From: a virus
Lineage: Duplodnaviria > Caudoviricetes
Direction: 5' to 3' (one strand)
DNA: 64,000 nucleotides
Virus record (IMG/VR): IMGVR_UViG_3300031251_000018
Coordinates: 1,177 to 65,176 of that record
Shown: positions 20,659 to 28,905 of the stretch, piece after piece
Numbering within the stretch: position 1 is the first letter of the stretch
Layout: the number at the start of each line of letters is the position of its first letter
Notes under the pieces: generated by a model
Databases searched by the model: none
Told to the model about the DNA's origin: nothing
What the model saw: only the letters and a program-made list of their open reading frames with translations
Translations under genes and position numbers: made by a program

Positions 20659-21159
20659 ATGACCCCCGAAGAGATCGACGCAAACCCGAAGAAAGCGTTC
20701 GGCGCGCTGAAGCCGTCCCTACACTACGCCCCCATGAACGCGATGCTTCAAGTTGCGCGCGTCTTCGAACTCGGGGCGAAAAAATACGGCTTGAAAAATT
20801 GGAGGCGCCAGCCAGTGGACGCCTCGACATATTACAGCGCCGCGTATCGGCATCTGATCGAATGGTTTGAGAGCGGCGTCAACGTCGATCCCGAAAGCGG
20901 GCAGCATCCGCTCGCGCACGTCATCGCGTGTTGCCTGATCGTGATCGACAGCACCGAGGGTGGCGAACTGATCGATGACCGCGGCTTCGCCGAAGTGCTC
21001 ACAGGGACGCAGGGTGCACCGGCGGCTCCCACGCCGCCCGCTCCACCACCGCCGCCGCCGGCTCCTGATAGCCCCCACGTGGCTCCGACGGACAACCTGG
21101 GCTCCGACATCTCGGCGGCGATCGAACAAGCTCTGACGACTTTATCGCATCACGAATAG
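20659..21159 (+). CDS. dATP/dGTP diphosphohydrolase (DUF5664)
   Basis: NPKKAFG..K, GAKKYG..NWR, YYSAAYRHL, DPESG.HPLAH. Confidence 0.88.
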   Translation: MTPEEIDANPKKAFGALKPSLHYAPMNAMLQVARVFELGAKKYGLKNWRRQPVDASTYYSAAYRHLIEWFESGVNVDPESGQHPLAHVIACCLIVIDSTEGGELIDDRGFAEVLTGTQGAPAAPTPPAPPPPPPAPDSPHVAPTDNLGSDISAAIEQALTTLSHHE

Positions 21160-21252: not shown

Positions 21253-22086
21253 ATGAGGGTGATGGCCGCTGTTTACATCGACATCGATCCGCACGCGTGC
21301 CGATGGACAGAGAATTTAATTGCCGCGGGTCTCGTGGCCCCTGGTGAAGTATGGAACGTGGATATTCGAGATGTCCGACCGATCGACCTTAAAGGATTCC
21401 AACAAGTCCATCTCTTCTCAGGGATCGGTGCGTGGTCGCACGCCCTCCGGTCTGCGAACTGGCCGGACGACCGAGAAGTCTTCACGGTCTCTTGCCCTTG
21501 CCAGCCTTTCAGCGCGGTCGGCGGCAGAACAGGGCTTGCTGACGAGCGGCACCTATGGCCCGCCGCCGATTGGCTTATCGGACAACTCCGTCCTGCAATT
21601 ATTTTTGCGGAACAAGTTAGCAGCAAGGACGGCCTCGCTTGGTTCGACGTTGTTCACGCTGACCTGGACGCGAAGGATTACGCCGTCGGGGCTCTCGATC
21701 TCTGCGCTGCGGGCTTCGGTGCGCCTCACATCCGACAGCGCCTATACATTTGTGCCGTGGCCGACGCCGAAGGCGTCCGACTGCCTCGGCGGAAGAACGA
21801 CGAACACGAAGGGCGGGGGCAACAAACATCTCGACAAGGATGTTCGACTCCTAACGAAACAAACGGGTTCTGGCGCCATTGCGATTGGAAGCGCGGAGCG
21901 GACAAGCGTCTCCGCGCCGTTGAGCCCGGCGTTGAGCCGGTGGTTGATGGGTCTGCCTTCCGCCTGGGATCGGGCGGCCCCTACGAAGGAAAGAGCCGCC
22001 GGCAGATGCTCAAAGGCTACGGCAACGCGATAGTCGCGCCGTTAGCCACGGAAGTCATCAAAGCGTTAATGGAGTGCGTGCCGTGA
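21253..22086 (+). CDS. DNA cytosine-5 methyltransferase, large (alpha) polypeptide
   Basis: LFSGIG (I), PCQPFS (IV), EQV (VI), HIRQRLY (VIII), YGNAIV (X); no motif IX seen in this frame. Confidence 0.9.
   Translation: MRVMAAVYIDIDPHACRWTENLIAAGLVAPGEVWNVDIRDVRPIDLKGFQQVHLFSGIGAWSHALRSANWPDDREVFTVSCPCQPFSAVGGRTGLADERHLWPAADWLIGQLRPAIIFAEQVSSKDGLAWFDVVHADLDAKDYAVGALDLCAAGFGAPHIRQRLYICAVADAEGVRLPRRKNDEHEGRGQQTSRQGCSTPNETNGFWRHCDWKRGADKRLRAVEPGVEPVVDGSAFRLGSGGPYEGKSRRQMLKGYGNAIVAPLATEVIKALMECVP
21371..22033 (+). CDS. Putative overlapping small (beta) polypeptide of the methyltransferase, +1 frame
   Basis: Open for 220 codons inside the MTase gene; WPTPKASD and LSPALSRWLMGLPSAWD (motif IX-like). 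Confidence 0.7.
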   Translation: MSDRSTLKDSNKSISSQGSVRGRTPSGLRTGRTTEKSSRSLALASLSARSAAEQGLLTSGTYGPPPIGLSDNSVLQLFLRNKLAARTASLGSTLFTLTWTRRITPSGLSISALRASVRLTSDSAYTFVPWPTPKASDCLGGRTTNTKGGGNKHLDKDVRLLTKQTGSGAIAIGSAERTSVSAPLSPALSRWLMGLPSAWDRAAPTKERAAGRCSKATATR

Positions 22087-22856
22087 TGCTATTTGCTCAA
22101 CCGTCGTCAGTCATGAACACCGAGATCAGGCTTCCGCCGCCGTCCCGTAAGGACAAAGTCCGCAAGATAATAGCGGAAGAAGCCCGGCGGTGTGGCATCT
22201 CTGTTGACGAATTGCTGGAGGATAACCGGCGCGGATGGGTGTTGGGCATCCGGCAATACGCAATGTGGCGCGCACGCATAGAGACAAAATGCTCTCTCCC
22301 GGAGCTTGGGGTGCTATTTGATTGCAGTCACGTGACGATCAAATACGCATTTCGAAAGGTAGAAGCGATAGCCCCCGATCTGCGCGGTGTGTTTGGCCCG
22401 AAGCCGATGGATGCGGCTCGCGGGATCATAGCCGAAGAAGCGGCACGCGGCGGGTATTCGGTTGATGAGATTCTTTCGCAGAAACAAACAAAGCGGCTGC
22501 GATCCGTCAGACAATACGCGATGTGGCGTGCCCACAAGGAAACCAAGTGCTCTCTTGTCGACCTCGGTGAAGCATTCGACCGCGATCATTCTTCGGTTCT
22601 CCACACGATCCGACGCGTAGAGGCGATGGCCCCCGACCTACGCGGCGTGTTCAGCCCGTGTCCGAAAGTCAGAATACGCCAGAAGATAATACCGAGGCCG
22701 CGGAAGGTCGCAGAAACGTATCAGGGCCGCCCGTGCGGGTATGGACATTCCGGTCTTCGATACAGAGTGAATAGACGGTGTATCGAGTGCAATGCGATCG
22801 GGGTTGCGCGGAGATACTGGCAGCGTAAAGCGGAGCGCGAGAATGATTTGGACTGA
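22086..22856 (+). CDS. Protein with two DnaA domain IV-like HTH repeats and a C-terminal Cys/His cluster
   Basis: RQYAMWRA..ETKCSL..LG..FD twice, second copy has DRDHSSVLH; PCGYGH...RCIEC. Confidence 0.8.
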   Translation: MLFAQPSSVMNTEIRLPPPSRKDKVRKIIAEEARRCGISVDELLEDNRRGWVLGIRQYAMWRARIETKCSLPELGVLFDCSHVTIKYAFRKVEAIAPDLRGVFGPKPMDAARGIIAEEAARGGYSVDEILSQKQTKRLRSVRQYAMWRAHKETKCSLVDLGEAFDRDHSSVLHTIRRVEAMAPDLRGVFSPCPKVRIRQKIIPRPRKVAETYQGRPCGYGHSGLRYRVNRRCIECNAIGVARRYWQRKAERENDLD

Positions 22857-23280
22857 ATATCTTTACGGCTTCGCCGAGCACGCCGCGAAGAAAAGCAAGG
22901 ACTCAACCCAGGTCGGCGCGGCGCTCGTCGGCCCTGAGTTGGAAGTCCGGCTGACCGCTTTCAACGGGCCGCCGCGCGGCGTCCGTGATCTCGCCGAGCG
23001 TCGCGAGCGGCCGACGAAATATATGTTCGCTTCGCACGCTGAAGCAAACCTGATTGCTTTCGCCGCGCGTGAGGGCATACGCACGAAAGGCTGCACGGTC
23101 TACGCCACGCACATGCCTTGCGCTGCCTGCGCCCGCACGCTGATCCAGGCCGGCATCCACAGGGTCGTCTATGGCCCCGGAGTGGCCGTCATGCACAACG
23201 ACGCCGAACTTCTCGCAACTGAAGCGATGTTTCGAGAGGCCGGCGTCACCTTATTCCCCTGTGGCAAGATAGGAGACTGA
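22843..23280 (+). CDS. dCMP deaminase
   Basis: SKDSTQVGA, NGPPRG, HAEANLI, PCAACAR. Confidence 0.92.
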   Translation: MIWTEYLYGFAEHAAKKSKDSTQVGAALVGPELEVRLTAFNGPPRGVRDLAERRERPTKYMFASHAEANLIAFAAREGIRTKGCTVYATHMPCAACARTLIQAGIHRVVYGPGVAVMHNDAELLATEAMFREAGVTLFPCGKIGD

Positions 23281-27556: not shown

Positions 27557-27820
27557 TTTCTACGCCGCCCGCTACGCCACGCCCCGCGGAGCCCGGCGTA
27601 ATCGATGGATGTCTCATCGTGTCCCGTTTTCTGTAGGCCCGATCCATCATCGGCGCGACGCAGAAGCGAATGTCATTGGAATCTAAGCGAGTGCTCGATT
27701 TTTCAACGCCTTGTATCTCGAGATAACGCGCCTTGTCTTCCACCATTGTCGCCCTTTATCGCCTATTCCCTTGCCATTCCTACACCGGGGGCGTAGAAAC
27801 TCACCGTCATGGCGTAGAAA
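27557..27820. other. attP region with dusA-derived core (about 27642-27668) and arm-like repeats
   Basis: Minus strand encodes RFCVAPMMD (DusA N-terminal motif) and then diverges; GGCGTAGAAA twice near 27790-27820 and inverted TTTCTACGCC at 27557. Confidence 0.8.
27642..27746 (-). pseudogene. dusA: Replacement 5' fragment of tRNA-dihydrouridine synthase A
   Basis: MVEDK...DIRFCVAPMMD; DusA begins RF(S/C)VAPMMDWTD. Confidence 0.7.
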
Positions 27821-27837
27821 GTGGGCGGTCATATCGG

Positions 27838-28905
27838 ATGGCGGGAACGATTGTAGAGCGGAAACGGGCAGATGGCACGACCGGCTACCGGGCCGAGATC
27901 ATCATCTACGCCGGTGGCCGGATCGCGCACCGCGAGTCGAAGACCTTCGACCGGCGACCCGCCGCCCGGGTGTGGTTGGAGAAGCGCGAGGCCGAACTGG
28001 AGCGCCCCGGCGCCGTAGAAAAAGCCAAGCTGAAGTCTGAAGGCGCGACGCTCGCCGACGCAATCGACCGCTACGTCGCGACCAGCCGGAAGGAGATCGG
28101 CCGGACAAAGGCCCAAGTCCTGCGGTCGCTGGCCGGGATGCCGATCGCCGCGCGCCCCTGCGCCGATATCAGGAGCCCCGATCTCGTGGCCCTCGCCGAG
28201 GGGCTCGGGAAGGACAGGACGCCGCAGACCGTGGCGAACTACCTCTCGCACCTTCAGGCCGTCTTCACGATCGCCCGCGCCGCGTGGGGCTTTGAGCTTG
28301 ACCCGGCGGCCATGGCCGACGCCTTCAAGGTCACTCGGCGGCTTGGCCTGACCGGCAAGTCGATCGGACGCGACCGCCGACCGACGCGCGCCGAGATCGA
28401 CACCCTGATGGCTTTCTTCCACGACCGCGGTTGCCGCCGGCCGCGCTCGGCGCCCATGCACCGGATCATCCCCTTCGCCCTCTACTCGACGCGCCGGCAG
28501 GAAGAGATCACGCGCATCCTGTGGTCCGATCTCGAGATCGAGCACCGCCGCGTCATGGTCCGCGACATGAAGAACCCCGGCGATAAGCTTGGCAATAACG
28601 TATGGGTCGATCTGCCGGATGAGGCTCTCGCGGTCCTCGATCTGATCGAGAGGACCGACGACCGGATTTTTCCCTTCGGAACCGACGCCATCTCGGCGTC
28701 GTTCACGCGAGCCTGTCACCGGCTCGGGATCGAGGATTTGCACTTTCACGACCTTCGGCACGAAGGGATCAGCCGGCTATTCGAAATGGGCTGGAACATC
28801 CCGCACGTCGCCGCGGTGAGCGGGCACCGCAGTTGGACTTCGCTCAAACGCTATACGCACATCCGCGAGAGCGGCGATAGATGGACAGGAGATTGGTGGA
28901 GATGA
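27838..28905 (+). CDS. int: Tyrosine integrase, dusA-associated type
   Basis: GTIVERKRADG N-terminus; STRRQEEI (R), DMKNP (K), FHDLRHE, SGHRSW, KRYTH. Confidence 0.95.
   Translation: MAGTIVERKRADGTTGYRAEIIIYAGGRIAHRESKTFDRRPAARVWLEKREAELERPGAVEKAKLKSEGATLADAIDRYVATSRKEIGRTKAQVLRSLAGMPIAARPCADIRSPDLVALAEGLGKDRTPQTVANYLSHLQAVFTIARAAWGFELDPAAMADAFKVTRRLGLTGKSIGRDRRPTRAEIDTLMAFFHDRGCRRPRSAPMHRIIPFALYSTRRQEEITRILWSDLEIEHRRVMVRDMKNPGDKLGNNVWVDLPDEALAVLDLIERTDDRIFPFGTDAISASFTRACHRLGIEDLHFHDLRHEGISRLFEMGWNIPHVAAVSGHRSWTSLKRYTHIRESGDRWTGDWWR

Follow-up and report, generated by a model that had tools for sequence, protein, structure and literature searches.

A +1-frame gene nested in a phage cytosine methyltransferase gene probably encodes its second subunit

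One phage gene of about 830 bases, at 21253 to 22086 of the 64,000 nucleotides of viral DNA analysed here (the window), probably encodes a two-subunit cytosine methyltransferase of the M.EcoHK31I kind, with a catalytic alpha chain in the main frame and a beta chain nested in the +1 frame of the same strand. An earlier note, made from the sequence alone, had proposed such a gene-within-gene design with two polypeptides, and our results support it by showing an intact second frame, selection acting on that frame in its own right and a predicted binding of the two products. On our best reading, what is new here is a beta of about 80% the length of alpha, with putative recognition modules and conserved across a very large phage family, while the layout as such was already known from M.EcoHK31I.

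Two chains encoded by one gene

The beta frame lies wholly inside the alpha gene (21371-22033 within 21253-22086) and the two overlap by about 660 bases. Alpha probably starts at the ATG at 21262, which has GAGGG just before it. The +1 frame is open from 21320 to 22033, giving 237 aa when counted from the TTG at 21320, and it holds a single ATG, at 21371, from which the 220-aa beta runs to the stop at 22033. The coordinates and sequences of both frames in the earlier note, including WPTPKASD and LSPALSRWLMGLPSAWD, were all reproduced from the DNA, and the motifs that it had named in the main frame (LFSGIGAW, SCPCQPFS, AEQV, GAPHIRQRLY and YGNAIVAP) were read directly in alpha. The gene sits within the phage replication and recombination module, and a scan of the 14 flanking ORFs against PHROGs gave no match to a restriction endonuclease. 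The features of the locus are:

21253..22086, + strand: alpha, putative C5 cytosine methyltransferase catalytic chain, 277 aa (ORF list, PF00145, phrog_363)
21371..22033, + strand: beta, nested +1-frame ORF, 220 aa from ATG (phrog_1008, phrog_31772, homologues)
21412..21435, + strand: alpha LFSGIGAW, tentatively named motif I-like glycine loop (strand-loop-helix 49-67 in the AF2 model)
21490..21513, + strand: alpha motif IV SCPCQPFS with catalytic Cys83 (invariant in 66/66 alphas; within the PF00145 match)
21500..21559, + strand: beta block ASLSARSAAEQGLLTSGTYG, beta 44-63 (conservation in beta starts here; bases shared with alpha motif IV)
21584..21739, + strand: beta anchor, helix 72-90 plus hairpin 95-117, GSTLFTLTW...LRAS (beta-alone fold, co-fold)
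21607..21618, + strand: alpha motif VI AEQV, equivalent of ENV (E120, Q121 and V122 invariant)
21718..21747, + strand: alpha motif VIII GAPHIRQRLY (G156, R161 and R163 invariant)
21758..21781, + strand: beta WPTPKASD, the one recognition-like module in the window copy (read directly)
21763..21861, + strand: alpha variable low-confidence linker, residues 171-203 (only the beta frame constrained)
21862..21951, + strand: alpha conserved block NGFWRHCDW...RAVEPGVEPVVDG, residues 204-233 (dual-coded)
21920..21970, + strand: beta LSPALSRWLMGLPSAWD, motif IX-like (pattern, conservation, co-fold)
22018..22041, + strand: alpha motif X YGNAIVAP (Y256, G257, N258 and I260 nearly invariant)

Judged by its catalytic residues, its PF00145 match and an M.HhaI-like predicted fold, alpha is a C5 cytosine DNA methyltransferase chain. 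Pfam PF00145 matched it at 57.9 bits (cut-off 22; 1.5e-15) and TIGR00675 at 46.3 bits, which is under the 100.65 cut-off of that model, and both matches were confined to residues 71-176, i.e. to motifs IV-VIII; phrog_363 of PHROGs matched over the full length (8e-62). In an hhalign comparison with E. coli Dcm motifs IV-VIII were likewise aligned (E 4e-5), and a Foldseek search with the AF2 model of alpha gave M.HhaI as top match (1fjx_A, E 1.3e-7), with 1dct_A at 2.2e-6. The model had a mean pLDDT of 74.9 and was confident for residues 1-170 and 247-277, with values below 50 for residues 181-201. C83, E120, R161, R163, G257 and N258 are all present, and conserved across 66 alphas. The motif I-like loop comes after the motif II/III-like YIDIDP...IRDV, and therefore the motif order of alpha looks permuted. 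What an M.EcoHK31I-type alpha would contain was found by HMM for motifs IV-VIII, and by eye and model for motif X and the motif I-like loop.

The stretch between motifs VIII and X has 93 residues, made up of a variable linker (one third of them) and a 30-residue block, and by sequence and model alpha appears to be without a full recognition domain there. Within the block (204-233) W207, W212, D217, R221, P225, P229 and G233 are conserved; it shares bases with beta just before and within the motif IX-like segment and falls in the predicted alpha/beta interface, and both frames are constrained there. The helix that carries motif X (247-275) is confident in the AF2 model and contacts beta 189-199 in the co-fold model. 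No HMM saw a motif IX in the main frame, and the earlier statement that this frame is without one holds at HMM level, as far as such models see.

Beta matched two PHROGs families, phrog_1008 (1.9e-16) and phrog_31772 (7.8e-8), and has 1250 homologues of similar length, with up to about 390 aa in relatives. Searches of Pfam, NCBIfam and PDB sequences gave no match, and the ESM Atlas returned no family, only virus clusters of 'hypothetical protein'. Folded alone, beta was modelled poorly (mean pLDDT 58.7), the anchor being its sole confident part (pLDDT 78-95). The first 43 or so residues are poorly conserved, and the constraint on alpha wobble bases starts at alpha residue 85, near the beta block 44-63. 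Downstream of the anchor the number of W-P-T-P-like modules varies from 0 to 5 per beta across relatives, and the beta of epsilon15 has four W-x-T-P units where its alpha has a low-complexity insert; these modules may be what recognises DNA.

Towards its C-terminus beta carries LSPALSRWLMGLPSAWD, which matches what we take to be the motif IX pattern. L184, P186, W191, L192, M193, P196 and W199 of this segment are conserved, the conserved pattern being L-x-P-x-x-S-R-W-L-M-G-L-P-x-x-W, and in the co-fold model it contacts alpha 18-22, 157-159 and 256-263 with the lowest expected error. An hhalign comparison of the beta profile with E. coli Dcm gave a probability of 0.13% and aligned the wrong region, and the naming as motif IX thus rests on the pattern together with the model. 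The motif IX that the earlier note had placed in the +1 frame is accordingly there as a conserved pattern, but profiles find no motif IX; and the subunit that it had described does have a motif IX-like part but is no small peptide, since beta, at 220 aa and about 80% of alpha, also carries a W-P-T-P module and an N-terminal anchor overlapping alpha motifs IV-VIII.

Selection on the +1 frame and the start of beta

Neither frame is interrupted, and selection acts on each of them separately. Openness alone is weak evidence in G+C-rich DNA: in the window (60% G+C) 2 of 200 synonymous-codon shuffles kept the +1 frame open for 237 codons or more, which makes the window-only signal modest, and at 17 of the 84 loci the observed open run was attained by more than 4 shuffles in 200. 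Across the relatives, the evidence for a beta frame beyond chance is overwhelming. The open +1 frame covered 70% of alpha or more in all but three of the 84 loci, which are related by descent so that counts across them are not independent events, and the exceptions have an extended (L034, L049) or a truncated (L038) alpha. The stop-codon avoidance that the earlier note had suggested checking was borne out, as one stop-free beta ORF spanned the beta profile in 82 of the 84 loci and the other two (L075, L083) are cut by contig ends. As a control, E. coli dcm had a longest +1 run of 88 of its 472 codons and no match to the beta profile. Scores of this profile on the real +1 frames had a median of 278 bits, as compared to a median of 90 and a maximum of 149 bits for 420 synonymous shuffles and a maximum of 1.1 for the +2 frame. 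The real scores topped all 420 shuffles in 83 of 84 loci, the lowest being 43 bits (the truncated alpha, L038) and the next 168, and the conservation of alpha by itself accounts for about 90 of the 278 bits.

Wobble bases were analysed at conserved four-fold codons in 76 non-redundant alphas. Their entropy was 1.74 bits at the 12 sites that lie outside the overlap and 1.22 bits at the 45 within it (one-sided Mann-Whitney p 0.005), and at alpha residues 85-239 as many as 19 of 26 four-fold sites were below 1 bit, with a T in 76/76 at V122 and a G in 72/72 at P229. Alpha wobble bases are thus nearly frozen just where beta is conserved. The mirror test showed that the W-P-T-P codons of beta hold positions 1 and 2 and leave the wobble bases of P131, T132 and P133 free (H 1.5-1.85 bits), which is an ordinary coding signature in the beta frame where alpha is variable linker. 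Both frames are constrained together at alpha residues 85-170 and 205-229. Further, the length of the alpha VIII-X spacer correlated with the number of beta modules (rho 0.66, p 8e-9) in 60 of 78 loci, the 18 with unmatched motif patterns being left out, and by sequence the insertions in alpha appear to be beta modules.

Most likely, beta is started independently at the ATG at 21371. All 76 sequences have a beta-frame ATG ahead of the conserved block, the codon of alpha Asp40 is GAT in 61 of 75 (81%) as compared to 40% GAT overall, and past alignment column 41, as far as alpha residue 95, the beta frame is free of stops. In a 1.8-billion library, profile positions 3, 9 and 13 are where many called beta proteins start. 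At the ATG of the window no GGAG, GAGG or AGGA was found from -16 to -4; such a tetramer lies upstream of some beta ATG in 63 of 76 sequences, a count that carries no weight without a null. A promoter scan inside the gene gave 0 sites vs. 0.8 expected.

A two-subunit enzyme and the alternatives

Co-folding, which the earlier note had proposed as a check, predicted an interface between alpha and beta, with ipSAE values of 0.91, 0.91 and 0.90 as compared to 0.00 for the best control. The mark is attained by 116 of 157 solved complexes and by 2 of 215 mismatched pairs, a calibration that is rough because of the own alignments used. The runs had at least 81% of their contacts in common and a partner pLDDT of at least 67. 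In the complex model the beta hairpin pairs with alpha strand 144-152, and the paired strands, alpha 144-152 and beta 104-115, come from the same 30 or so bases. Possibly, the pair passes because it resembles methyltransferases solved as a single chain, a common outcome with the halves of a split enzyme.

We propose that alpha, read in frame 0, would form the catalytic large domain, with the AdoMet-binding fold, the PCQ cysteine, motifs VI, VIII and X and the short conserved block, and that beta, if translated from the +1 frame as we infer, would supply a loose tail of about 43 residues, the helix-plus-hairpin anchor, one W-P-T-P module and the motif IX-like segment. Beta would bind alpha by extending the alpha sheet with its hairpin at strand 144-152 and by packing its motif IX-like helix on the first helix and motif X of alpha. 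Both chains would be needed, and the pair would restore the two-domain architecture that M.HhaI and Dcm hold in one chain. The phage would have its own DNA methylated by this enzyme, presumably as a protection from restriction by the host.

It is unlikely that beta is translated but is no methyltransferase subunit, and that it instead regulates or inhibits alpha or has an unrelated role and just shares its DNA. Such a role would fit the lack of a match to known families, the lack of detectable likeness of the beta profile to Dcm and the fusion of beta, in some relatives, to an HNH domain (P0124) or an SNF2 helicase (P0213). However, alpha, with its 93 residues between motifs VIII and X, appears to be without a full recognition domain there, the C-terminal motif of beta lies in the model at the place expected for motif IX relative to motif X, the same motif type is followed by GNSVV (motif X) in the same frame in Gordonia phage Jumbo, and the nested pairing is preserved in 82 of 84 loci. 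That the +1 frame is non-coding, and open owing to G+C content, to alpha conservation or to an RNA or DNA signal, is hardly credible. Shuffles alone do leave 100-200 codons open and score about 90 bits with the profile, but they are outscored by the real frames in 83 of 84 loci, beta keeps a coding-type pattern where alpha is unconstrained, the indels are whole beta modules, and Lactobacillus phage Lc-Nu and the 45% G+C locus of Paenibacillus phage Genki have the frame open too.

The remaining alternatives concern how the +1 frame would be read. A programmed +1 ribosomal frameshift early in alpha, fusing its first 40-80 residues to beta, would account for the weak Shine-Dalgarno at the beta ATG of the window, the failure to find an internal promoter and the poor conservation of the first 43 or so beta residues. 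We regard it as very unlikely, since wobble bases are hardly constrained at the alpha four-fold sites 41-82, where 16 of 17 sites have 1.65 bits or more, and thus no conserved slippery or stimulatory sequence is present at the shift site it needs, and since the invariable ATG, the GAT preference at Asp40 and the starts of called betas all argue against it, as do the Met codons of its own at which M.EcoHK31I beta initiates in the available text of PMC2836561. Two frame changes, from 0 to +1 after motif VIII and back before motif X, would produce a single chain with the classical order VIII, recognition part, IX, X. This, and likewise a pseudogene or sequencing artefact, is extremely improbable: the dual constraint extends over alpha 85-170, upstream of motif VIII, as well as over 205-229, 81 of the 84 independent loci, from many samples, have the two frames open, and PF00145, which would mark a fused single-chain form, is absent from all 120 listed of the 122 longer beta relatives found. 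A double frameshift or a pseudogene created by sequencing error was rejected on the dual-frame constraint and this openness.

Distribution, meaning and known systems

The nested layout is widespread. At E <= 1e-3 the beta profile matched 22,192 called-protein cluster representatives, of which 8,236 remained at E <= 1e-30. The two-frame layout was found in Rhodobacter, Kagunavirus, Vequintavirus, Krischvirus and Lactobacillus Lc-Nu phages, as well as in Paenibacillus Genki, Mycobacterium Spikelee and Gordonia Jumbo phages, and spans T4-like and rV5-like phages among others. The expectation that gene callers miss beta did not hold for called proteins, as these 22,192 representatives and the two PHROGs families demonstrate, but it did for GenBank, where 10 of 12 phage records annotate alpha only; the nested CDS is annotated in one, Paenibacillus phage Genki, and the Gordonia phage Jumbo record has just its last 78 codons. 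Our literature search, with subscription journals and REBASE outside it, found nothing on the two-frame layout of this phage family. Two papers on Paenibacillus phages list, in their available text, two DNA-cytosine methyltransferase rows (PMC6070908) and one such row (PMC5056774), where the nesting is unremarked.

It may be, although we lean slightly against it, that the nested layout is the standard build of a very large methyltransferase group of Gram-negative, Gram-positive and actinobacterial phages, of which M.EcoHK31I and M.AquI are two sampled forms, and that its recognition subunit is built from cassettes, with 0-5 W-P-T-P modules, and overprinted on the catalytic gene. If so, specificity would shift by gain and loss of modules in one frame while the other tolerates them as linker, and among the same-strand overlaps conserved in double-stranded DNA viruses this one would rank with the longest and the most widespread. 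Should both chains be required, the annotations of most phage genomes record half of the enzyme, and recoded or codon-optimised expression of the annotated gene would destroy beta unnoticed, which could account for inactive 'orphan' phage methyltransferases and for wrong specificity predictions. A dual-coding region of 0.6-1.1 kb, in which alpha-only, two-frame and beta-only zones can be told apart, would be available in this family in thousands of natural copies, rare material for studying the origin and upkeep of overprinted genes. For engineering, it would provide natural split C5 methyltransferases with modular recognition chains, and a two-frame methyltransferase also bears on how phages evade restriction.

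To our knowledge, a nested two-frame methyltransferase layout is proven only for M.EcoHK31I of E. coli. The available text of PMC2836561 and PMC3404938 presents M.EcoHK31I (E. coli HK31, YGGCCR) as an alpha/beta C5 methyltransferase with a predicted TRD in alpha, and that of PMC2836561 further describes a beta nested in another frame of alpha, a requirement for both chains, internal Met codons of beta that act as starts, and the use of the enzyme for targeted methylation. As far as described there, the phage pair resembles it in having the catalytic motifs and motif X in alpha and motif IX (IX-like here) in a beta on the same strand in another frame. Several usable Met starts and an N-terminal part of beta that modulates association are M.EcoHK31I's own features in that text. 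Unlike M.EcoHK31I, where the predicted TRD is placed in alpha, the phage beta holds W-P-T-P recognition-like modules, and it has 220 aa and an anchor overlapping motifs IV-VIII. M.AquI (CYCGRG) is likewise split, according to the available text of PMC3404938, into a catalytic chain and a chain with part of the variable region and motif IX; its small chain has both IX and X, whereas in the window motif X is in the alpha frame and beta stops at 22033. A relative, Gordonia phage Jumbo, does have an AquI-like split, in which alpha ends after motif VIII and the +1 frame has IX and X.

Alpha shares its large-domain fold with the single-chain enzymes M.HhaI, M.HaeIII and E. coli Dcm, but differs from them in that the small domain, i.e. 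the recognition part and motif IX, would lie outside its frame. Also unlike single-chain enzymes, it has the motif I-like loop after the II/III-like segment, and the +1 frame of Dcm is closed. Among nested phage genes, the Rz and Rz1 products of lambda act together as one complex. This pair is mentioned in the available text of bioRxiv 10.1101/2022.06.14.493971. As in lambda, one gene lies wholly within another on the same strand in another frame, with products that would act together, but the phage methyltransferase frames share about 660 bases and their proposed products are the halves of one enzyme.

The methyltransferase gene and its nested frame

The source virus record has 65,176 bases with direct terminal repeats and is rated 100% complete, and the window covers nearly all of it. 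The methyltransferase gene is part of a rightward block of genes for replication and recombination, with the following features:

rightward block around the methyltransferase gene, ParB-like protein
rightward block around the methyltransferase gene, exonuclease
rightward block around the methyltransferase gene, Gp2.5-like annealing protein
20659-21159, upstream of alpha, ORF with an N-terminal dATP/dGTP diphosphohydrolase domain (PF18909) and a proline-rich tail, APAAPTPPAPPPPPPAP
21253..22086, plus strand, alpha, the main-frame ORF of 277 aa
21758-21781, plus strand, +1 frame, WPTPKASD
21920-21970, plus strand, +1 frame, LSPALSRWLMGLPSAWD
22074-22856, downstream of alpha, ORF with two tandem DnaA C-terminal helix-turn-helix units (PF08299, two stretches, 2.4e-24)
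22792-23280, dCMP deaminase
27733-28905, farther along than the replication block, tyrosine integrase (phrog_1, 1.9e-40)

With the diphosphohydrolase-domain ORF and the dCMP deaminase near the methyltransferase, nucleotide-pool and DNA-modification genes lie side by side. The tyrosine integrase, together with the direct terminal repeats of the record, makes a temperate lifestyle probable for this phage. The helix-turn-helix ORF (260 aa, GTG start) overlaps the last 13 bases of alpha, and its C-terminal tail is rich in Cys.

Alpha matched phrog_363 over its full length (8e-62) and PF00145 at residues 71-176 only (57.9 bits). Modelled alone, it took the fold of a C5 methyltransferase large domain (mean pLDDT 74.9), confident at residues 1-170 and 247-277 and poor at 171-246, with M.HhaI as the top Foldseek match (E 1.3e-7). 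The motif order in alpha looks permuted, as a motif II/III-like YIDIDP...IRDV is followed by the motif I-like glycine loop LFSGIGAW and directly by PCQ (21274-21513); relatives in phages Lc-Nu, Genki and Spikelee have the canonical order with an N-terminal glycine loop.

Reading of the window sequence bore out the earlier note's coordinates and its placing of WPTPKASD and LSPALSRWLMGLPSAWD in the +1 frame. This frame has no stop from 21320 to 22033, and its sole ATG, at 21371, gives a nested protein, beta, of 220 aa.

Chance, by-product or selection

Two of 200 synonymous-codon shuffles of the window alpha reached the real +1 run length in this 60% G+C window, so the open frame of the window alone would not convince; the relatives do. 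We compared 84 loci, comprising the window, 3 phage records and 80 viral-contig loci (the best 80 of 580 relatives). In 81 of them the open stretch of the +1 frame covered 70% or more of the main ORF. Of the three others, L034 and L049 simply have a longer main ORF, and viral-contig locus L038 (1501-2230) has a stop at alpha codon 106 and a whole nested ORF of 207 aa, which could reflect a sequencing error, damage to alpha or a remnant with beta only. One stop-free +1 ORF spanned the nested-protein profile in 82/84 loci, and in L075 and L083 it runs off the contig. In such DNA, openness by itself discriminates poorly: the observed run was reached by more than 4 of 200 shuffles in 17/84 loci and by none in 34/84. 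As a control, the longest open +1 run in E. coli dcm was 88 of 472 codons, with no profile hits.

A profile of 13 nested proteins had a median score of 278 bits against the real +1 frames (lowest 43, for the truncated L038, then 168), as compared to a median of 90 and a maximum of 149 bits on 420 synonymous shuffles, in which the main protein and the codon usage of its gene were preserved. The +2 frame gave approximately 0 bits. The main frame thus accounts for about one third of the beta similarity, as a by-product, and not for the remainder.

The main-frame wobble base is the middle base of the +1 codon, and its entropy was taken at conserved four-fold alpha codons in 76 non-redundant sequences. 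It was 1.74 bits outside the overlap (12 sites) vs. 1.22 bits inside (45 sites; Mann-Whitney p 0.005). The wobble was free at alpha residues 41-82 (at least 1.65 bits at 16/17 sites), whereas at residues 85-239 it fell below 1 bit at 19/26 sites, with nearly fixed bases at V122 (T, 76/76), P229 (G, 72/72) and A153 (G, 72/73). In the mirror test, within the variable-linker stretch of alpha, the W-P-T-P codons of beta hold bases 1 and 2 and vary at the wobble (1.5-1.85 bits), which is an ordinary coding-frame signature. Simultaneous constraint on both frames was seen at alpha residues 85-170 and 205-229.

Where the main protein has insertions, these are modules of the nested one. In the main frame the epsilon15 insert has low complexity; in the +1 frame it reads as four W-x-T-P units. 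The VIII-to-X spacer length followed the number of such units (0 to 5) with rho 0.66 over 60 loci, leaving out the 18 of 78 where simple motif patterns failed. The window, which has a single unit and a spacer of 93 residues, is near the minimal form.

As to the putative start of beta, none of the 76 sequences had a +1 stop after alignment column 41 (columns up to alpha residue 95), and all 76 had an ATG upstream of the conserved beta block, most commonly at columns 40 (54/76), 34 (43/76) and 44 (22/76). The Asp40 codon, which makes the commonest ATG, is GAT in 61/75 sequences vs. 40% GAT overall. In a large protein library many called beta proteins share a small set of start positions on the profile. 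The window ATG is without a good Shine-Dalgarno tetramer, and no promoter-like sites were found inside the window methyltransferase gene. For M.EcoHK31I beta, several Met codons were shown to be usable as starts, according to the available text of PMC2836561.

Distribution and annotation

Matches to phage records by tblastn numbered 122 with the nested protein and 419 with the main protein. Of the protein-database relatives of beta, 1250 were similar to it in length and 122 were longer, and PF00145 occurred in none of the 240 matches listed. Two relatives are fusions, perhaps formed by reading on from the nested ORF into the following gene: P0124 (455 aa) has an HNH nuclease motif (residues 364-405) and P0213 (1076 aa) a SNF2-type helicase (residues 349-756). 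A 66-sequence beta profile matched 22,192 cluster representatives at E <= 1e-3, 12,513 at E <= 1e-10 and 8,236 at E <= 1e-30.

The same layout was found in Rhodobacter phage RcCWillis, E. coli phage ULINTec2, Klebsiella phage YX3973, a Vequintavirus and a Krischvirus, with profile scores of 95-186 bits in the +1 frame vs. at most 0.3 in the others, and was recognised by eye in Lactobacillus phage Lc-Nu, Paenibacillus phage Genki and Mycobacterium phage Spikelee. In Gordonia phage Jumbo (L093, 1000-1891) the main frame ends past motif VIII, and the +1 frame, open at 1283-1888, encodes LLPTPVASD, a motif IX-like INPEFVEWIMGF and LGNSVV.

The main frame alone was annotated in 10 of the 12 phage records examined. 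The Jumbo GenBank record has only the last 78 codons of the +1 frame, as gp36, and that of Genki (L091) has a main CDS (970-2025) and a nested +1 CDS (1172-1876), both named 'DNA cytosine methyltransferase'. In the literature searched we found no description of the two-frame layout of this phage methyltransferase family; in the available parts of two papers on Paenibacillus phages, PMC6070908 gives two rows for DNA-cytosine methyltransferases and PMC5056774 one, with the nesting not remarked on.

Two probable chains of one enzyme

Folded alone, beta was poor (mean pLDDT 58.7) except for a helix at 72-90 and a hairpin at 95-117. Co-folds of alpha and beta with our own alignments A3 and A4 gave ipSAE values of 0.91, 0.91 and 0.90 (best control 0.00). 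Of solved complexes 116 of 157 attained this mark, as did 2 of 215 mismatched pairs, and split-enzyme halves can pass it through resemblance to solved single-chain enzymes. The runs had at least 81% of contacts in common, with partner pLDDT of at least 67. The tightest predicted contacts were between beta 189-203 and alpha 18-22, 157-159 and 256-263 (motif X), and between beta 112-113 and alpha 149-151; by coordinate arithmetic, the two strands paired at this last contact share the same ~30 coding bases, about 21680-21715. The models support predicted binding of beta to alpha.

Beta had no match in Pfam, NCBIfam, PDB sequences or named Atlas clusters, and hhalign against E. coli Dcm gave a probability of 0.13%. 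The naming of its putative motif IX thus rests on a C-terminal pattern known from canonical enzymes, together with the place ahead of motif X in Jumbo and the structure model.

Taken together, our results show that the nested gene is real and strongly conserved, and beta is quite probably the second subunit of the methyltransferase. As described in the available text of PMC2836561 and PMC3404938, M.EcoHK31I needs both chains, an alpha with motifs I-VIII, X and a predicted TRD, and a beta with motif IX that is coded wholly inside alpha in another frame. Likened by this described layout rather than by sequence, the window has the same nested design. Unlike M.EcoHK31I beta as described there, the window beta has ~80% of the alpha length, overlaps motifs IV-VIII and bears a modular recognition-like part. 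The split in Jumbo, a member of the same broad group with the motif IX-like segment and GNSVV both in the +1 frame, is M.AquI-like.
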